From a virus (Duplodnaviria; Heunggongvirae; Uroviricota; Caudoviricetes), in IMG/VR virus record IMGVR_UViG_2698536348_000016: DNA of 16,246 nucleotides; one strand, written 5' to 3'. The notes beneath the pieces are model-generated. The model saw only the letters and a list, made by a program, of their open reading frames with translations, was not told where the DNA came from and searched no databases. This document shows, in pieces, positions 858 through 16,246 of the stretch. Every line of letters starts with the position of its first letter. The stretch's first letter is position 1. The translations under genes were made by a program, and so were the position numbers.

Positions 858-2792
858 TTACGCGACCGGGCGCGCAATAATGCTGCGGGTTTCCATGCGG
901 ACTTCGGCAATAGTGACGTCAATAACGTCAGTCACTTTGTAAACCGTTTCACCTTTAATTTGTACAGTGCCGTTTTCCTGGCTGCAAACCAGTTCATCGC
1001 GCATAGCGTGTAAGAAAGGTGCCGGAATAAAGGCGATAGCGCCGTTATCAACCAAACGAACACGCATGCCGCCACGGCTGATATCGACAATTTCCGCTGC
1101 GAAACGGGTGTCGGTCCCGGCTTTGTCTTTCAGGAAGCGTGCGTATAACCAGTCACCAACATCACGTTCTGCCATCCGGTTGAGACGGCGACGCTCGGCC
1201 ATTTGGACAGTGATTTCATCCTGTGGGCGCGTCGCAGTTTCGCCTTTGATAACCGCTTTCAGCAGACGGTGGTTGATCATGTCGCCATATTTACGGATCG
1301 GCGAAGTCCAGGTGGCGTATGCTTCCAGACCGAGGCCAAAGTGAGGACCGGGTTCAGTGCTAATTTCAGCAAATGACTGGAAGCGACGAATGCGGCTGTC
1401 GAGGAAACCAGTTGGTTGCGCGTCCAGTTCACGACGCAGTTTGCAGAAACCGTCCAGCGTGAGCACTTCTTCGGCATCGACATGCAGACCGTGCGTTTTC
1501 AGCAACGCTGCCAGCGCGTCGGCATTCGCCGGATCAAAGCCCATATGCACGTTATAGATGCCAAAACCGAGCTTATCGCGCAGTACGCGGGCCGCACAAA
1601 TGTTAGCGGCAATCATCGCTTCTTCGACGATACGGTTGGCAATGCGACGAGGCTCGGCGACGATATCCAGCACTTCACCTTTTTCACCGAGAATAAAGCG
1701 GTAATCCGGGCGATCTTTAAACACCAGTGCGTGGTTATGACGCCACTCGCCGCGGCGTTGGCAAATTTGCGCTAGCAAACGGACTTGTTCGGCAATTGCT
1801 TCACTTTCAGGCTGCCAGTCACCGGTATTTTCCAGCCAGTCAGAAACCTGGTCATACACCAGCTTTGCTTTGGATTCGATGGTGGCGGCAAAGAATTCGA
1901 TATTATCTTCAATGGTGCCATCAGCGGAGAGCGTCATGCGGCATACCAGTACCGGGCGGACTTCATTGGCGCGCAGTGAGCAGAGATCGTCAGAAAGCTC
2001 GCGAGGCAGCATAGGGATGTTGAAGCCAGGCAGATAGTTGGTGAATGCGCGAATTTTCGCGGCTTTGTCCAGCTTGCTGCCTTCAGCAATCCACGCGGTT
2101 GGATCGGCAATCGCCACAATCAGCTGAAGTTTGTCATCCGGCAACGCCTTAGCGAAAAGGGCGTCATCCATATCTTCTGTGCTGGCACTGTCGATGGTGA
2201 CAAAATCCAGCGCGGTCAGATCTTCACGAACCAGACCTTCATCGAGCATTTCGGTAGCGACGCCGTCTGGTGCTTCTTTTTCCAGATTATGGCGCGCAAG
2301 GGTAACCCACCACGGTACAAAGTGGTCGTCACCAAAAGTGATGTATTGTGTCAGTTCAGCATAGAAAGAACGATCGCCTTTCAGCGGATGACGGCGCATT
2401 TCGGCAACCGCCCAGTCGCCTTCTTTAAACTCGTGGTTCAGGCCACGGGCTGCGCGGCAAGGAATGGCGTCTTTTAAGAGTGGATGATCAGGAACGATGG
2501 CCAGACGGTCATTTTTGCCCTGAACTTTACCCACGAAACGAGTCAGGAACGGTTCAACCAGTTCTTCTGGCTCTGCGGATTCACGTTCTTTTTCACTGTG
2601 GATCACCGCGATAATTCGGTCGCCATGCATGACTTTTTTCATCTGCGGCGGCGGAATGAAATAACTTTTTTGCGCGTCGACTTCCAGGAAGCCAAAGCCT
2701 TTTTCTGTGGCTTTTACCACCCCTTCAGCGCGTGGCGTCTGGGAATGCAGTTGCTGTTTAAGCTGCGCTAGCAGCGGGTTGTCCTGAAACAT
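858..2792 (-). CDS. rnb: Exoribonuclease II (RNase II)
   Basis: 644-aa [41 protein letters not shown]..., matching RNase II as I recall it (RNB catalytic domain, C-terminal S1 domain); length and neighbours fit. Confidence 0.96.
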
Positions 2793-2859
2793 AATTGTCT
2801 ATTTTGGTGGCCATTAGAGCGGCTGACAGTTTTACGCGAATCTGTCTGACGCGGCAAGG

Positions 2860-3987
2860 TTAATATGTCTCACCCAACGCGATTTTTAAGCGATTTATCC
2901 AGCCACACAGCCCGCTCCATACCAGCAGATTAATAATCTGCGTTGATGATTTTTCGTGTTCGAGTAAAGGGCTGAACTGGGCGGCGCTAAAGCGATCGGG
3001 TGCTCGGGTCAGCCATTGTATCGCCTGAACGGTAGCGTGCTCAACAGAATGACGGTCAGCCCATTGGTTAATTTCATTTTCGCCCTTGCGCAGAAGGGGG
3101 CTGATTTTTTTATATTCATTTGATGAATCCATACAGGCGGCAAAACAAGCAGGACTGCCATTTATCCGCGCGCATAACAACGCCGCAAGCTTATTATCCG
3201 GCTGTGTATTAACCCGTGTACTGTTTAACAACCTTTCGAGAAGGGAAAGTGAAATAGGGTGGAGAGAGAGTGTTTCGGCCAGTTGGCAAAGTTCTGCTGT
3301 TGAACTTTTTGTGTACTCTTCAGGTAGTTTTTCCACCTCATAGCTGCTTCGCCAGCGTATTGATTCATCAGCAAACAGTGACGCGTCGGCGTAGTTTTGT
3401 ATTTCCAGACCGGGTAACCAGCGTACCGGGTGCCCGAGATAAGCCTGAAATGTCGCAATGGTCCGCGCCTGAAAGCCAATAAAACCAATGATTTGGTTAA
3501 TGATCACACAGTCCCCGGCAGTAAGACCGACGTCATTCAGATGCTGGCGCGATCGGTTGTCGATAATAGAAGGCGAGCTAGCCAGTTGGCGGGCATATTG
3601 CGTGATTTGTGCCAACCTATGATTGCTTTCCCTGGAGGAATCAGGCCCGGGGAGCGGCGTAAGTCGCGCCGAATAGTAGTTACATAACCGCTGGACGCCG
3701 CAAACCTGAGCAACCGTCAGGGCCGTAGACAAGCGTTCATAAGCGGTGAAGGTCTGTGAACGGGTCACGGTAAGCTGGTCAGGGAACAATTCCACTGCAA
3801 GAACGCGCGCAGGGACCAGCCATGAAAGGAAGGGAGCCAGCGTTTCTTCATCAAGGAGCACGTCGAGCAGAAAGGGATCGCTGACCTTTGCGGCTTCCGG
3901 GACCAGAGGCAGAACGTCATACTCCGCAGTACTGGATTGCGTTTCATGATACCAGTGGCTTTTGCCGGTGATGTGGCGTTGTTCCAT
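2860..3987 (-). CDS. yciW: YciW (CMD-like putative oxidoreductase)
   Basis: ORF track gives 401 aa from 4065, but AAGGAG lies 5 nt upstream of the internal ATG at 3987 ([15 protein letters not shown]...), giving 375 aa; synteny between rnb and fabI. Confidence 0.85.
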
Positions 3988-4092
3988 GGGCGCTCCTTGG
4001 TCGTAAAGGAAATCGTTATCCTGACGCAAGGCGGGAAGGGGAGAAAGACGGATCGGCGATAACAAATATCAGAAAGGTATAACAGAGATAAC

Positions 4093-4111
4093 GGGCGGCA
4101 GAACGCCGCCC
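4093..4111 (-). terminator. Hairpin downstream of fabI (probable terminator)
   Basis: GGGCGGC agaac GCCGCCC perfect 7-bp stem 20 nt after the fabI stop; the U-tract on the minus strand is imperfect (GTTATCTCTGTTAT). Confidence 0.4.
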
Positions 4112-4131
4112 AATATTTACCAACAGAATGA

Positions 4132-4920
4132 TTATTTCAATTCGAGTTCGTTCATTGCAGCGATGCTGAAACCGCCGTCAACGTGGACCACTTCACCGGA
4201 GATACCGGCAGAGAGATCGGAGCACAGGAATGCCGCGGAGTTACCCACATCTTCAATAGTAACGGTACGGCGAATCGGGGTAACGGCTTCGCAATGAGCC
4301 AGCATTTTGCGGAAGTCTTTGATACCGGAGGCCGCCAGAGTACGGATCGGACCAGCAGAGATGGCGTTAACACGCACACCTTCCGGACCCATCGCGTTCG
4401 CCATATAGCGCACGTTCGCTTCCAGAGACGCTTTTGCCAGACCCATAACGTTGTAGTTCGGGATAGCGCGCTCAGCGCCAAGGTAGGAAAGGGTCAGCAG
4501 GGCAGAACCCGGATTCAGCATGGAGCGGCAAGCTTTTGCCATTGCAACGAAGCTGTAGGAGCTGATGTCGTGGGCAATTTTGAAGCCTTCACGGGTAACG
4601 GCGTTAACATAGTCACCATCCAGCTGATCGCCAGGTGCAAAACCAATAGAGTGTACGAAACCGTCAAATTTCGGCCAAACTTTCCCCAGTTCAGCGAACA
4701 TAGTGTCGATGCTGGCATCTTCTGCAACATCGCACTGCAGAACGATGTCAGAACCCAATTGAGCGGCAAATTCTTCTACGCGGCCTTTCAGTTTGTCGTT
4801 CTGGTAGGTGAATGCCAGTTCAGCTCCTTCGCGGTGCATCGCCTGAGCGATACCGTAGGCGATGGATAGTTTGCTGGCAACACCGGTTACCAGAATGCGC
4901 TTACCGGAAAGAAAACCCAT
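4132..4920 (-). CDS. fabI: Enoyl-ACP reductase (NADH) FabI
   Basis: 262-aa [43 protein letters not shown]..., SDR-family signature and length of FabI. Confidence 0.96.
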
Positions 4921-12494: not shown

Positions 12495-12623
12495 TACTGG
12501 CCCTGGAAGTGGGAGCGAGTCTGCGCCGCGCTGCGGGAGCTGAACAAGCACCGGGATATTGTTCGACAGATTGTCGATTCATCCGGTCGTATTGTGTCGG
12601 AAAAGTGATTGCCGGAGGCGCTT

Positions 12624-13019
12624 ATGGCGAAACCTTTTACACACGAACAGCGGGAAGAACTGAAGGCACGAATTATCGGATTGGTACGCAAAAATGAACG
12701 CATGACGATATCGCAACTGGAGAGAGCGACGGGAGCAGGCTGGCATTCAGTCAGACGTTGCCTTGTGGATGTACTGGCTTGTGGCGATTTATACATGTCC
12801 GGTAAATACGGTGTTTTTGCATCAGAACAGGTGTATCGCGTATGGCGTAAGACACCGGAGAAAACAACTGACCAGACATTGATTCGAAAGTTACCAGACG
12901 GAGAAATTCGCCGCTACGATAGACGCCTGAACATAATCTGTCGCGAGTGCCGGAATAGTGAAGTTATGCAGCGCGTGCTGGCTTTCTATCAGGGGAATTT
13001 TCAGGAGGCGGTACTGTGA
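12624..13019 (+). CDS. Hypothetical protein (131 aa), first gene of the opposite-strand cassette
   Basis: ATG at 12624 with GGAGG RBS 5 nt upstream; MAKPFTHEQREELKARIIGLVRKNERMTISQLERATGAGWHSVRRC...; possible helix-turn-helix-like segment; family unknown. Confidence 0.6.
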   Translation: MAKPFTHEQREELKARIIGLVRKNERMTISQLERATGAGWHSVRRCLVDVLACGDLYMSGKYGVFASEQVYRVWRKTPEKTTDQTLIRKLPDGEIRRYDRRLNIICRECRNSEVMQRVLAFYQGNFQEAVL

Positions 13020-13075
13020 GTAAATTAGCTATCAGGCTTCAATTGTCGCTGGCATTCGCATCAAAGGAGAATGAG

Positions 13076-13660
13076 ATGACCACTTTTACAAAAGAGCAGT
13101 TAATCAGTCATGTTAGTGAAAATGTAAAGGCGATGAAATTTGCAGTAAAACAGACAGCATTCAAAAATTCTCTCGAGGCAATTGAGTTGGATTTAGCACT
13201 GGCCCTTGTTGCTCAGGCTTCGCTGGAAGCAGAGCCCGTGCTTTATATGAATCGATTTACCGGAAAGACATTCTCACTGGAAGAGCAACCCGGTGCTGAT
13301 AAGGAACCGGAAATATACGTGCCGCTATATGCTGCCCCGCCAGACAGCGCCGCCATGCTTCAGGCTGGAAACTTTCGGGAAAAGAAGGGTTCGTCAACCA
13401 ATAATTTTCGGGAAATCTCGGAAACGTCAACCAACCATCCGGTAACTCTGGATGGTTGGATAAGCTGTAGTGAGCGAATGCCGGATGACGGTCAGCACGT
13501 AATTATTTTATGTGATGGCGCATTCGTTCTTTATGCGCAATATCGAGACGGTGAGTTTTTTGATGTAGTCCGTGATGGTGATGAATTTTTCGAAACACAG
13601 AGCCGCAATGTAACCGACTGGATGCCGCTACCAGAACCGCCGCAGGAGGTGCGCCAATGA
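13076..13660 (+). CDS. Hypothetical protein with C-terminal DUF551-like domain
   Basis: ATG at 13076 with AAGGAG RBS 7 nt upstream; C-terminus ...DGWISCSERMPDDGQHVIIL...VTDWMPLPEPP resembles the phage DUF551 motif; internal tandem repeat (NFRE...STN x2) at 13369..13434. Confidence 0.7.
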   Translation: MTTFTKEQLISHVSENVKAMKFAVKQTAFKNSLEAIELDLALALVAQASLEAEPVLYMNRFTGKTFSLEEQPGADKEPEIYVPLYAAPPDSAAMLQAGNFREKKGSSTNNFREISETSTNHPVTLDGWISCSERMPDDGQHVIILCDGAFVLYAQYRDGEFFDVVRDGDEFFETQSRNVTDWMPLPEPPQEVRQ

Positions 13661-13740
13661 ACTGGCCTGAAGCATTTGCAATTACAGGCGTTGCTATGGC
13701 TATCACCTTTTTAGTATATGTTATTTGTCGGTGGGGGTAA
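13657..13740 (+). CDS. Small hydrophobic peptide (27 aa), translationally coupled to the upstream gene
   Basis: ATGA overlap with the stop of the preceding gene; MNWPEAFAITGVAMAITFLVYVICRWG, single predicted TM segment; below the ORF-track length cutoff. Confidence 0.35.
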   Translation: MNWPEAFAITGVAMAITFLVYVICRWG

Positions 13741-13775
13741 AAACGTTCGCCGGGATTAACACCAAAGGAGGGAAT

Positions 13776-13880
13776 ATGTCGGATGATATATCACTGGCAA
13801 TGGAAGGTGCGCTGGCTGTTGTTGCTGTTGTGGGCGTTTACTGCCTGGTTGTGTTTTTGATGGATCGACTAGGGAACTGA
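13776..13880 (+). CDS. Small hydrophobic peptide (34 aa)
   Basis: AAGGAGGG RBS 4 to 5 nt upstream of ATG; MSDDISLAMEGALAVVAVVGVYCLVVFLMDRLGN, single predicted TM segment. Confidence 0.45.
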   Translation: MSDDISLAMEGALAVVAVVGVYCLVVFLMDRLGN

Positions 13881-13890
13881 ATTCATTACG

Positions 13891-13908
13891 ATATGGGAAT
13901 TCCCATAT
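13891..13908. repeat. Perfect 18-bp palindrome ATATGGGAATTCCCATAT
   Basis: Self-complementary 18-mer 11 nt downstream of the peptide stop and just upstream of the putative hok promoter. Confidence 0.6.
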
Positions 13909-13922
13909 CGGGTAAAAACGGT

Positions 13923-13950
13923 TTGCGGTAAAGCGAGAGTTAAGTAGAAT
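13923..13950 (+). promoter_or_regulatory. Putative hok mRNA promoter
   Basis: TTGCGG (-35), 16-nt spacer, TAGAAT (-10); predicted 5' end near 13957 (GGGTGCTTGAGG), which is complementary to the 3' segment 14331..14343. Confidence 0.35.
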
Positions 13951-13994
13951 TGCTGCGGGTGCTTGAGGCTGTCTGCCTCGGGCATGCCACCGTA

Positions 13995-14090
13995 AGGCAG
14001 ACAGAGAAAAGCCCCAGTTAACATTACGCGTCCTGCAAGACGCCTAACATTAATCTGAGGCCAATTTCATGCTAGACACATGTAGGTTAG
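13995..14090 (-). ncRNA. Expected Sok-like antisense RNA region (approximate)
   Basis: Inferred from hok/sok architecture: antisense to the leader and upstream in-frame start; minus strand has TTGCCT, 17 nt, TAACCT promoter-like hexamers near 14113..14085 and hairpin GCGTC ctgcaa GACGC (plus 14027..14042). Boundaries not resolved. Confidence 0.3.
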
Positions 14091-14125
14091 CCTCTTACGC
14101 GCCGAAAGGCAAGGAGAAGCAGGCT

Positions 14126-14281
14126 ATGAAGCAGCAAAAGGCGATGTTAGTCGCCCTGATCGTCATCTGTATTACCGTCGTAGTGACGGCACTGGTAACG
14201 AGGAAAGACCTCTGCGAGGTACGAATCCGAACCGGTCAGACGGAGGTTGCTGTCTTCACAGCTTACGAACCTGAGGAGTAA
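14126..14281 (+). CDS. hok: Hok/Gef-family type I toxin (51 aa)
   Basis: MKQQKAMLVALIVICITVVVTALVTRKDLCEVRIRTGQTEVAVFTAYEPEE, close to HokD/HokC (Gef) as I recall them; AAGGAG RBS 9 nt upstream; ORF track 14069..14281 includes an in-frame upstream ATG. Confidence 0.9.
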   Translation: MKQQKAMLVALIVICITVVVTALVTRKDLCEVRIRTGQTEVAVFTAYEPEE

Positions 14282-14349
14282 GAGACCAGGCGAGGGAGAA
14301 ATCCCTCGCCACCTCTGATGTGTCAGGCATCCTCAACGCACCCGCACTT

Positions 14350-14371
14350 AACCCGCTTCGGCGGGTTTTTT
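14350..14371 (+). terminator. Intrinsic terminator of the hok transcript
   Basis: AACCCGC ttcg GCGGGTT followed by a T6 run; the same 20-mer recurs at 15191..15210. Confidence 0.7.
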
Positions 14372-14490
14372 CACTTACTGTGGTTGTGAATACGATTGGT
14401 ATTAGGCTATGCTAACAACATTAGCCTGACTAATTTTGTATTGACTTGATTTTTGTTAAAGAACAGGACGGAGAAGTAAGGGTACACCCA

Positions 14491-14670
14491 ATGAGCTACG
14501 CACTAAAAAAACACCCGCGATTGACTATTCCCCCTCGCGATAAAAGCGTTGTGGCAGCTCCGCGCCCGGCTATCGATGAAAATTGCACTCATCGTGAGCA
14601 GGTGAAAAATGCTTTCGATTTCGGTTTTTCTCGTTACGAGAAGGCAATGGAAGAACTTTCAAAAGTGTAA
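14491..14670 (+). CDS. Small protein (59 aa), candidate antitoxin partner of the Doc-family toxin
   Basis: ATG at 14491 (ORF track starts at TTG 14446); MSYALKKHPRLTIPPRDKSVVAAPRPAIDENCTHREQVKNAFDFGFSRYEKAMEELSKV; stop 18 nt before the toxin ATG. Not Phd-like by eye, so the role is inferred from position only. Confidence 0.4.
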   Translation: MSYALKKHPRLTIPPRDKSVVAAPRPAIDENCTHREQVKNAFDFGFSRYEKAMEELSKV

Positions 14671-14688
14671 TGATGGGTATTGTGCTCT

Positions 14689-15174
14689 ATGGCTGAGATT
14701 GTTGAAGGAGTGCACTACCTTTCGTTTGATGATCTTACCGAAATTAATCGCCTTTTAATTGAGCTTCAAACACCAGATGAACCTGTTAGTGTGCTGAGTG
14801 TTGATAATTTAAGTTCTTCTCAGTCTCGTCCCAGCATGGTTCGATGGTATGAACAGACTAATGACATGTTTGTACTGGCATCAGTATTGATTGAAAGTCT
14901 GATTCAGAATCATCCATTTGCTAATGCAAACAAACGAACAGCTATGATGGCTGGTTATGTCTTCTTGTTGTTGAATGGCTATGAGTTAACAGCACCAGGC
15001 GATGAAATCGTGGAAATGGCAGAGGGACTGGCCTGCAAAACCTATACTCGAGAAGATCTCGAGAACTGGTTGTGTTATTGGTCTCGTGCGTATGACAGCC
15101 GGGAATTATGTAAAACAGGCGCAACTATTGTTTTGTATGAAACTATCAAGCTTAAAATAGAACAGCAAAACTAA
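14689..15174 (+). CDS. Doc-family (Fic-fold) toxin
   Basis: Contains HPFANANKRTAMMAGYVFLLLNGYEL, matching the Doc motif H-x-F-x-(D/N)-(A/G)-N-K-R and following helix (P1 Doc has HIFNDANKRTALNSALLFLRRNG as I recall). ATG 14689 chosen; TTG 14680 is the alternative. Confidence 0.8.
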   Translation: MAEIVEGVHYLSFDDLTEINRLLIELQTPDEPVSVLSVDNLSSSQSRPSMVRWYEQTNDMFVLASVLIESLIQNHPFANANKRTAMMAGYVFLLLNGYELTAPGDEIVEMAEGLACKTYTREDLENWLCYWSRAYDSRELCKTGATIVLYETIKLKIEQQN

Positions 15175-15188
15175 AGGTGCTTCTAATG

Positions 15189-15210
15189 AAAACCCGCTTC
15201 GGCGGGTTTT
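15189..15210. terminator. Bidirectional intrinsic terminator between convergent doc-like and higA-like genes
   Basis: AAAACCCGC ttcg GCGGGTTTT: perfect hairpin with an A-run upstream and T-run downstream. Confidence 0.7.
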
Positions 15211-15224
15211 GTTGTATTGGAGTA

Positions 15225-15542
15225 TCATGATATTACCTGGATCCCGTTTTTCTCTACGACTGAAAGAAGGCGAAGAGCGGCACCTCCCGGCCGTTTTACA
15301 CCACGTTCCCAGTCTGATATCAGGTTTTTACTGACGTTGAGGTATCTGGCAAAAACAGGTTGAGACAGATGCTCTCGTTCGCGCAGTGCACGGATCCTTT
15401 CCGGAGACATTACCGGCGCTGGCTGGAGACAAGTTTCATCGAATTCTCGCATAGTCTGTTTCGTTACTGCGCCGATATCATGAAGCGATTCCATCATTTC
15501 ATGTACGGATGCAAGCGCATCACTGCGGTAATTTTTACTCAT
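15225..15542 (-). CDS. HigA-like antitoxin (XRE-family HTH)
   Basis: 105-aa ORF MSKNYRSDALASVHEMMESLHDIGAVTKQTMREFDETCLQPAPVMSPERIRALREREHLSQPVFARYLNVSKNLISDWERG...; ATG overlaps the last codons of the upstream toxin frame (CCCAATGAGTAA), toxin-first order typical of higBA. Confidence 0.85.
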   Translation of the reverse strand: MSKNYRSDALASVHEMMESLHDIGAVTKQTMREFDETCLQPAPVMSPERIRALREREHLSQPVFARYLNVSKNLISDWERGVKRPGGAALRLLSVVEKNGIQVIS

Positions 15543-15905
15543 TGGGTACCTCCGTAAACTGACCCTGTAGAATCAGTTGTGCCAGTTGTTCATCTGTTAG
15601 ATTGAGTACGTGAGGAGCCGCCTTCCGAAATGCACTTTCCGCAGTAGCGGTTATATTTTCACGTTCATTTTTTGCGTATGCATATACGAAAAAGGCCCTT
15701 GTGCCGACGCGATAGAAAATGATTGTGCGATAACCGCCAGATTTGCCGCCACCGACTCGTGGCAGACGTTGCTTGATAACGCCGTTACCCAGGTTTGCTG
15801 AGATAAGCCCGTTATCAGCCTGTTTAACAATTTCGCGCAGTGATTGGTCGGATATTTTGTTTTGCGTGCAAATCGCTCAAACCAGGCGTTTTTAAAAATG
15901 CGCAT
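15535..15905 (-). pseudogene. HigB/Gp49-like RelE-superfamily toxin, disrupted by a frameshift in an A-run
   Basis: ATG at 15905 gives MRIFKNAWFERFARK, then the frame derails to the unrelated tail of ORF 15651..15968; the -1 frame continues NKISDQSLREIVKQADNGLISANLGNGVIKQRLPRVGGGKSGGYRTIIFYRVGTRAFFVYAYAKNEREN...QFTEVPNE to a stop at 15535 but has no start codon of its own. Break maps to the A4 run at plus 15860..15863. Confidence 0.75.
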
Positions 15906-15926
15906 TTTTTGTTCCGTTATTAATGT

Positions 15927-15941
15927 ATAACACATAGTGTT
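15927..15941 (-). promoter_or_regulatory. Candidate operator palindrome upstream of the higB-like gene
   Basis: TAACAC ata GTGTTA perfect 6-bp inverted repeat about 22 to 36 nt upstream of the toxin ATG. Confidence 0.4.
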
Positions 15942-15972
15942 ACATTGCGTAGGGATCTGCAATGCCATCAGT

Positions 15973-16002
15973 TTGACAACGTCGCGTGTTCGGGGCTATA
16001 TT
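15973..16002 (+). promoter_or_regulatory. Near-consensus sigma70-type promoter
   Basis: TTGACA (15973..15978), 18-nt spacer, TATATT (15997..16002); divergent from the higB-like promoter region. Confidence 0.5.
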
Positions 16003-16007
16003 CCTCA

Positions 16008-16083
16008 CGCGCCAGCAAAACCTGGCGTCGGGATTAGCACCCCGGATATCGAAACGGTGCATAACCGCGCTGGCGGTTTTTTT
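16008..16083 (+). ncRNA. Candidate small RNA or terminated leader (about 76 nt)
   Basis: Lies between the promoter above and an intrinsic terminator AACCGC gctg GCGGTT plus T7 (16063..16083); contains a further hairpin CGCCAG caaaac CTGGCG; the only ORF across it is a GTG-started frame that reads through the terminator. Confidence 0.4.
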
Positions 16084-16246
16084 ATGCGCTAAGCACAGTC
16101 ACATTCGCGATTTATGGCGGGCTGTGTGGGGGAGCCGAATGAGGTGTACTGACAATAGCGGACACTACCATTTGTTCTTTTTTTAAGCAGCTATCTGATG
16201 ATATTTTTCCCTGAAGGCTGCCGGGGAGATATTCCCCAGACGAGAG

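Follow-up and report, generated by a model that had tools for sequence, protein, structure and literature searches.

Doc-family toxins arrest growth by phosphorylating EF-Tu at Thr382, and the arrest is relieved by a partner protein. The closest described systems are the phd-doc modules of P1, Salmonella, and Enterococcus, which are toxin-antitoxin (TA) systems of type II with an EF-Tu kinase, Doc, as the toxin. Antitoxins that consist of a neutralizing element only also exist, such as PaaA2 of the paaR2-paaA2-parE2 system. The partners known for Fic/Doc toxins are Phd/YefM, AbrB/MazE, YhfG/FicA, and Panacea joined to the C-terminal element of Phd (Phd-C) (PMC2701414, PMC3141249, PMC10440598). 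The window analyzed here, the whole 16,246-nucleotide (nt) stretch of a Caudoviricetes virus in IMG/VR record IMGVR_UViG_2698536348_000016, shows 100% identity to a lambdoid prophage found in Escherichia coli ML35 and contains, between two copies of one 20-nt sequence, a Doc-family gene directly preceded by a gene for a 59-amino-acid (aa) protein. On the basis of its sequence, the 59-aa family is distinct from all of the partners named above. We assign a probability of roughly two in three to the reading that the two genes form a type II TA-like moron cassette, in which a 59-aa neutralizer is combined with a Doc kinase and which is exchanged by recombination at the shared 20 bp. As an accessory insert (a "moron"), such a two-gene cassette would occupy a place within the nin region of the lambdoid prophage. 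The features that make up the module are as follows, with coordinates referring to the window.

14350..14369, plus strand: left 20-mer, hok terminator (7-bp stem, UUCG loop, U6 tail), with a predicted folding energy of -12.6 kcal/mol.
14370..15210, plus strand: presence/absence unit of 841 bp, comprising the leader, the 59-aa gene, doc, and one terminator copy, delimited by blastn against the empty-site relative L015.
14370..14490, plus strand: leader of the Doc operon, a candidate promoter/operator region with a conserved block and an inverted repeat.
14491..14670, plus strand: gene for the 59-aa protein (WP_000119356.1, "hypothetical protein"), the putative cognate antitoxin, on the evidence of PHROG 2208, synteny, and an AlphaFold2 (AF2) model.
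14689..15174, plus strand: gene for the 161-aa Doc-family toxin (WP_000818160.1), on the evidence of TIGR01550 DOC_P1, Pfam Fic, and Foldseek.
15189..15210, no strand assigned: hairpin containing the right 20-mer (15191-15210), the predicted Doc operon terminator, with folding energies of -15.3 kcal/mol on the plus strand and -12.8 kcal/mol on the minus strand.

The 161-aa protein is a clear member of the Doc family by sequence and model comparison, in agreement with the initial annotation, which had called the gene Doc-like and named its HPFANANKRT motif. TIGR01550 (DOC_P1) matches with 122.2 bits (cut-off, 38.65; E = 1.3e-35) over profile positions 2 to 122 of 122, and Pfam PF02661 (Fic) matches with 44.5 bits against a cut-off of 24 (E = 2.9e-11). 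The motif, HPFANANKRT (residues 75 to 84, encoded at 14911-14940), fits the Doc-type pattern HxFx(D/N)(A/G)NKR, which carries K where AMPylating Fic proteins carry G, and it aligns with HIFNDANKRT of P1 Doc; H75, F77, N79, N81, K82, R83, and T84 are invariant across 34 Doc homologs. An all-helical Fic/Doc fold is predicted by the AF2 model built with these 34 homologs, and the five best matches of this model in a Foldseek search of the PDB are P1 Doc chains (probability of 1.00, template modeling score of 0.58 to 0.59 on the target), followed by Fic proteins, although the confidence of the model is modest. In a PDB search with the sequence, the nearest solved relatives are the Doc-family protein 9vzc_A (E = 1e-12) and P1 Doc (3k33; E = 1e-4), and because P1 Doc is matched only at the latter value, the protein is placed in a divergent Doc subfamily of about 160 aa. 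This subfamily is widespread among the Enterobacterales and carries a conserved C-terminal extension, WLCYWSRxYDSRxLC, which P1 Doc lacks. The toxin of the window shares with phd-doc the TIGR01550 assignment and the HxFxNANKR motif, but differs in its divergence, its length, and this extension. An alternative TTG start of the gene lies at 14680. By analogy with the Doc proteins of P1 and Salmonella, the protein would be a Fic-fold kinase that phosphorylates EF-Tu and arrests translation.

The link between the two genes is close. A homolog of 58 to 60 aa is located directly 5' of an approximately 160-aa Doc gene in every locus inspected, in at least 14 genera and in unrelated contexts, and the gap between the two genes is 18 nt in the window and 3 to 10 nt in the other loci. 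The pair occurs in five prophage contexts in E. coli, in the tail region of a Salmonella prophage, in the Providencia chromosome between topA and sodC, and in the baseplate region of a Pantoea phage, and a genome scan found it in nine of nine species (Serratia, Kluyvera, Citrobacter, Hafnia, Rosenbergiella, Yersinia pestis, two Xenorhabdus species, and an Orbaceae bacterium). It is also present in two Pseudomonas phages, Sirocco (L147, 1450-2181) and LPPA56 (L148, 1501-2175). A small gene that lies immediately 5' of the toxin gene and is inherited together with it, as in type II operons, is thus observed throughout. The Pseudomonas carriers of the pair are P2-like and other temperate phages, in which the pair stands beside the integrase gene or at the genome end, and in LPPA56 both genes are annotated as hypothetical proteins only.

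The 59-aa protein carries a single label, PHROG 2208 (function unknown; E = 2.7e-42), and profile searches of Pfam, NCBIfam, PADLOC, and the PDB returned no matches for it. The best PDB match of the family, ribosomal protein S25 at an E value of 0.19, was treated as chance. Among 47 relatives, no consistent Pfam family match was obtained even at an E value of up to 10, and the AbrB/MazE and YhfG models matched none of these 47 members. An exhaustive profile search of 1.84 billion representative sequences yielded 39 relatives, which are 38 to 95 aa long except for two of 1,274 and 2,917 aa; these two showed multistretch matches to the N-terminal part of the profile only and were taken as low-complexity noise. 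Members have in common an IPxRDK motif in the N-terminal part and a C terminus, QVxNAFxxGFxRYEKAMEELSKV, that is strongly conserved. Nucleotide differences between orthologs of the 59-aa gene fall chiefly at third codon positions (e.g., 14, 9, and 36 differences at the first, second, and third positions in comparison with Salmonella), and because of this bias the open reading frame (ORF) is taken to be a real gene under purifying selection. In the AF2 model, one confident helix spans residues 34 to 57 (QVKNAFDFGFSRYEKAMEELSKV), and the N terminus has no secondary structure. No DNA-binding fold of the Phd/YefM type (PF02604) was found, either as a Pfam match or as a folded N-terminal domain in the AF2 model, nor was any other DNA-binding domain for operon autoregulation detectable by sequence or model. 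A ribbon-helix-helix or AbrB-like N terminus was considered and fits neither the sequence nor the model, and the FicA/VbhA-type inhibitory motif (S/T)xxxE(G/N) showed no fit when the sequence was read for it.

The 59-aa protein would be the cognate neutralizer of Doc, one without a recognizable DNA-binding domain. The C-terminal 22 residues of Phd are enough to bind and inhibit Doc, with hot spots at F56, I59, M60, H63, L67, and L70 (PMC9207808). When the last 22 residues of the 59-aa protein are laid without gaps on Phd residues 52 to 73, F42, F46, Y49, M53, and L56 fall on F56, M60, H63, L67, and L70, an overlay made by hand from the spacing and carrying no statistics. The conserved amphipathic C-terminal helix (residues 34 to 57) would therefore probably bind Doc as the Phd C-terminal helix does, and the N-terminal IPxRDK motif may provide a second contact with Doc. 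The order of the genes, with the small gene followed by the toxin, the carriage by temperate phages, and the C-terminal helix as the likely neutralizing element are features in common with phd-doc, whereas the partner in the window has neither the fold nor the sequence of Phd/YefM and is predicted to have no folded DNA-binding domain.

An unrelated carrier fused to the Phd-C element neutralizes a Doc, and single-domain antitoxins that are a neutralizing element alone, with no DNA-binding domain, exist (PMC10440598). In PanA:Doc from the NetFlax study (PMC10440598), in which Phd-C is fused to Panacea, the antitoxin likewise carries a swapped or bare neutralizing element. Like the Panacea- and PaaA2-type antitoxins, the 59-aa protein is short and largely disordered, has a helix that is expected to neutralize, and has no DNA-binding domain of its own, but the cassette contains neither a Panacea domain nor a third regulator gene, and the protein belongs to a separate sequence family (39 representatives, PHROG 2208). 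The pairing of Fic/Doc toxins with several unrelated small antitoxins is also seen in AbrB/MazE-Doc (tasA-tasB) and in YhfG/FicA or VbhA with Fic; the window differs from these in that the 47 family members are unmatched by the AbrB/MazE and YhfG models and no (S/T)xxxE(G/N) motif was seen on reading. Large surveys of E. coli and Klebsiella with SLING list unnamed partners of Fic toxins without detail.

Autoregulation of a type II operon through a DNA-binding domain of the antitoxin finds no counterpart in the sequence or the model of the 59-aa protein, and because no such domain was detected, regulation, if any, would proceed by another route. The 120-nt leader of the operon exists in at least three divergent types. 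A block, TGGTATTAGGCT, at 14397-14408, with the short form TGGTATTAGRCT, is conserved across genera; written as TGGTATTAG(G/A)CT, it is located about 85 nt 5' of the start codon of the 59-aa gene, is common to the leaders of E. coli, Salmonella, Kluyvera, Citrobacter, and Serratia (the window, L006, L138, L139, and L137), and is the sole feature kept across otherwise unalignable leaders. A 6-bp inverted repeat, AGGCTA/TAGCCT, at 14404-14409 and 14422-14427 overlaps the block. The conserved block is a candidate -10 region or operator, as judged from the sequence. Candidates for -35 and -10 boxes picked by hand in the leader were weak and inconsistent among the leader types.

The 59-aa protein might instead not be an antitoxin at all and might serve as a regulator, a chaperone or targeting factor of Doc, or a phage defense sensor peptide, with Doc being otherwise held in check or not inhibiting growth, an alternative that we consider unlikely. 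The lack of homology to known antitoxins, the lack of a DNA-binding domain, and the conserved IPxRDK motif, which has no known role, would all suit such functions, but the position, size, and tight spacing of the gene are typical of type II antitoxins, the strict co-inheritance with this Doc subfamily extends across genera and contexts, and the C-terminal helix resembles known neutralizers of Doc. The 59-aa protein is probably, judging from its sequence and model, the cognate antitoxin of Doc and a member of an unnamed family. The fuller proposal is more tentative and stands, in our estimate, a little below even odds: that the protein founds an unnamed family of Doc antitoxins that are minimal and mostly disordered, have no DNA-binding domain and no sequence kinship with Phd, AbrB/MazE, YhfG, or Panacea antitoxins, act through a C-terminal helix plus IPxRDK, and have spread together with their Doc subfamily via temperate phages of Enterobacterales and Pseudomonas in a cassette shuffled at the 20-bp joint.

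The joint itself is the exact 20-mer AACCCGCTTCGGCGGGTTTT, which is present twice on the plus strand of the window (14350-14369 and 15191-15210), as the initial annotation had stated, and no further match was found in the window even with up to three mismatches. In shuffled windows, 0.01 matches are expected, and two or more matches occurred in 0 of 200 shuffles. Both copies form a G+C hairpin with a UUCG loop followed by a U run, and both were scored as terminator-like by a simple scan. The assignment of the left copy to hok in the initial annotation agrees with the end of homology at about 14370 in the hok loci of other phages, and the hok-type flank (..CGCACTT followed by the 20-mer) was found in 31 viral contigs among the matches listed. 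On the right side, the same hairpin comes after the stop codon of doc in each of the five contexts in E. coli, including L003, which lacks hok; the exact 20-mer stands 3' of doc in two Xenorhabdus genomes, at loci without hok; and a 19/20 version stands 3' of doc in Citrobacter and Pantoea. Because it follows doc where hok is absent (L003 and Xenorhabdus), the right-hand copy is, by sequence comparison, the Doc operon's own terminator, and the operon would end in its own hairpin composed of the same generic 20 nt as the upstream hok terminator. Together with the preceding AA, the right 20-mer makes a symmetric A4-stem-U4 hairpin, and because the minus-strand fold is comparably strong (-12.8 kcal/mol), this hairpin is probably bidirectional and would also serve as the terminator of the convergent HTH/RelE operon (HTH, helix-turn-helix) on the right.

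The hairpin 3' of doc differs by genus, being CCACCTCCCGGTGG in Serratia and GCCACCTACGGGTGG in Hafnia and Rosenbergiella (L137 to L142), and is again ACCCGCTT(C/T)GGCGGGT in E. coli, Citrobacter, Pantoea, and Xenorhabdus, through inheritance or convergence. In the cassette-bearing prophage L002, the hok-side terminator (2479-2498) is degenerate (AACCTACTTCGGCGGTTTTT, with a broken stem), and the doc-side copy is intact, a pattern that fits either a relaxation of constraint on one of the tandem terminators or the loss of a repeat that permits deletion. Rfam matches to isrK, rsmX, and istR over both 20-mers of the window were below threshold and merely reflect the terminator hairpin.

The cassette is a presence/absence polymorphism. 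The 820 bp between the repeats are found in 125 of 5,426 complete E. coli genomes, in the chromosome every time, and the prophages of O104:H4 outbreak strains are 99.8% identical to the window. In ML35, the cassette lies in the nin region, with replication genes on one side and ninB/Q on the other. Its contexts in E. coli vary, with the cassette standing 3' of hok with various right flanks (L002, L004, and L005) or without hok (L003), and the homology among these contexts ends exactly at the T run of the hairpin. The G+C content is 0.39 to 0.44 in the cassette and 0.47 to 0.52 in the flanks. The initial annotation had proposed a comparison with related prophages in which hok is followed directly by a single terminator, and a chimeric query composed of the 3' end of hok, one 20-mer, and the HTH flank located this empty arrangement, with the same right flank, in up to 168 E. 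coli genomes; each listed match was a single uninterrupted match with 100% coverage. This count and that of 84 given below are numbers of genomes in which one place covers 80% or more of the respective chimeric query, the single-piece status having been seen for the listed matches.

The base-by-base inspection covered two empty sites, L015 and L146. L015 (strain HCP4S3_I4), the closest empty-site match, shares its backbone genes with the window, and the HTH proteins of the two are identical. By blastn, its positions 1360-3220 correspond to 12506-14369 of the window and its positions 3201-4153 to 15191-16139, and since these alignments overlap by exactly the 20-mer, the window is the empty site with 841 bp added, and a 20-bp direct repeat bounds the added piece; the unit may equally be bounded at 14350-15190. 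The same junction was found in a second pair with another right flank, consisting of occupied L005 and empty L146, and the empty form of this pair is present in 84 genomes. The suggestion in the initial annotation of a self-contained cassette acquired by recombination at a terminator is upheld by this 841-bp difference, with a crossover that would fall inside the 20-mer. Because the junctions are base-exact in two independent contexts, homologous crossover is preferred to illegitimate joining, and the better reading of these sequences is that the shared 20 bp are the crossover point at which the cassette would be gained or lost. The gain or loss of the 841 bp could proceed through recombination of one prophage with another or of the two direct repeats with each other. 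The ML35 prophage encodes RecE, Bet, an exonuclease, and Gam (RefSeq annotation), and RecE/Bet/Exo would be plausible agents of the recombination.

The 20-mer has exact matches in at least 120 contigs of IMG/VR, and of the 122 occurrences listed, 90 have a unique, unrelated upstream sequence, 31 have the hok flank, and 1 has the doc flank. The 20-mer is a generic terminator word, and for this reason two adjoining modules sharing one hairpin are far less improbable than the shuffle test implies. The identity could then be a coincidence of two independent generic terminators, with junctions produced by illegitimate recombination and with selection keeping intact promoter-to-terminator units. The at least 90 unrelated viral contexts speak for this explanation, as do the doc 3' hairpins, whose variation in other genera makes convergence plausible, but the two independent occupied/empty pairs are base-exact on either side of the 20-mer, where illegitimate joins would be expected to scatter, and coincidence is less likely still than a nonantitoxin role of the 59-aa protein. 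The remaining explanation, a duplication of the terminator upon insertion, in which the hok terminator received a mobile Doc cassette and a 20-bp target was copied in transposon style, also raised in the initial annotation, draws on the exact 20-bp direct repeats at the ends of an 841-bp unit absent from related prophages but is largely refuted, and is very improbable, because the hok-less copies of L003 and Xenorhabdus (exact) and of Citrobacter and Pantoea (19/20) carry the same terminator after doc and because no transposase, integrase, or terminal inverted repeat was found in the 841 bp (ORF list and RefSeq annotation). To our knowledge, a target duplication of 20 bp exceeds those of known transposons. 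A transposon-type insertion differs from the locus in both respects, since here the repeat goes with the Doc operon at loci that lack hok and the unit contains no recombinase gene.

Exchange of a moron at the shared 20 bp remains the preferred reading. Morons of lambdoid phages and the mosaic boundaries of their modules were reportedly described by Hendrix, Juhala, and colleagues. The 841-bp unit behaves as a classic lambdoid moron, with a presence/absence polymorphism and homology that breaks at the cassette ends, and the terminator expected of a moron is predicted by the hairpin scan and the folding energy. It resembles these morons as an accessory unit with its own terminator and a lower G+C content, which is present or absent between conserved nin-region genes, and differs from them in that the adjacent hok module has the identical 20-bp terminator, which forms the joint, that the crossover is precise in two contexts, and that its promoter is putative.

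Several points weigh against the proposed neutralizer-Doc cassette exchanged at its terminator. For the partner, no homology to Phd was detected, with hhalign probabilities of 1.2% against P1 Phd and 0.8% against an alignment of 11 Phd sequences; the same values, together with the absence of Pfam and NCBIfam matches, confirm the earlier impression that the 59-aa protein does not look like Phd. The sole stretch aligned by hhalign, FxxYxKA over 8 to 9 residues, was not significant. The Phd-like binding mode draws on hydrophobic spacing alone, which any amphipathic helix could mimic, and searches by accession number and topic found no publications on the 59-aa/Doc pair. For the toxin, the confidence of the AF2 model is modest, with a predicted local distance difference test score of 71 for the best model and 41 to 46 for the other four. 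A promoter scan found no consensus sigma-70 promoter in 14370-14490. For the exchange, the flanks share 93.7% and 96.2% identity with L015, a divergence too great to polarize insertion versus deletion, and with a generic 20-mer the identity of the two copies alone is no proof of common descent or recombination.

The cassette is flanked by other small modules. The labels in RefSeq for ML35 are, in order, hokD, "hypothetical protein," "death-on-curing family toxin," HTH protein, and RelE/ParE toxin, and the neighboring features are as follows.

13957..14131, plus strand: hok leader/sok antisense region, left neighbor (RF01794 sok in Rfam; 116.9 bits; gathering score, 59; E = 2.3e-27).
14126..14281, plus strand: hok (RefSeq hokD), 51 aa (Pfam HOK_GEF, E = 5.6e-24; RefSeq annotation in ML35; ORF list).
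15225-15542, minus strand: HTH_3 antitoxin-like gene, right neighbor (Pfam HTH_3, E = 1e-7; RefSeq annotation).
15535-15905, minus strand: RelE/ParE-like toxin gene, convergent and frameshifted, right neighbor (RefSeq annotation; 1-nt deletion relative to an intact 123-aa homolog).

A Mok-like extended ORF in frame with hok starts at 14069. Just 5' of the hok/sok module, at 13776-13880 on the plus strand, is a hydrophobic 34-aa ORF, MSDDISLAMEGALAVVAVVGVYCLVVFLMDRLGN (WP_001278450.1, hypothetical), which is conserved in position in L001, L015, and L016 and may encode a further small membrane peptide. In the second empty-site prophage, L146 (45-1067), an anti-phage gene resembling KwaB of Kiwa is located immediately 5' of hok, and because of this adjacency the nin-region slot is suggested to accumulate defense or addiction cargo. 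On the right, the RelE/ParE-like gene has a 1-nt homopolymer deletion at 15860-15863 (T4 on the plus strand versus T5 in L015), which shifts the frame after about codon 14, and RefSeq rescues it as a protein of 112 aa that begins with ATT at 15873. The partner HTH gene (15225-15542), whose product is the same as in the empty-site relative, is intact, and the two genes look like a decaying toxin and a retained antitoxin. Further right, Rfam matches above the gathering score were obtained for isrK (16009-16083, plus strand, 74.3 bits) and for the c4 antisense target a1b1 (15996-16048, 47.4 bits). A near-consensus promoter-like site, TTGACA-18-TATATT, at 15973-16002 directly precedes them, a terminator at 16055-16078 closes the unit, and 15973-16083 (plus strand) seems to hold a small RNA unit of the immI/c4 type, upstream of ORF6N/antirepressor genes.

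These findings do not overturn current views, as mix-and-match TA pairs and morons are already well known; the 59-aa/Doc finding is sound and testable and unsurprising to a specialist, and the cassette is a tidy example of gene-cassette shuffling and not a new kind of system. Alleles with and without the cassette provide a clean and testable case in which short generic terminators act as homologous joints for the exchange of cassettes in mosaic phage genomes. Because the module is present in the O104:H4 lineage, Y. pestis, Salmonella, and Pseudomonas phages, a role in prophage maintenance, phage exclusion, or persistence would be of practical interest. Confirmation of the 59-aa protein as an antitoxin would add one more named family that neutralizes Doc kinases, and the protein would be another natural antitoxin amounting to little beyond the neutralizing element, which bears on how TA systems are assembled and regulated without an autorepressor.

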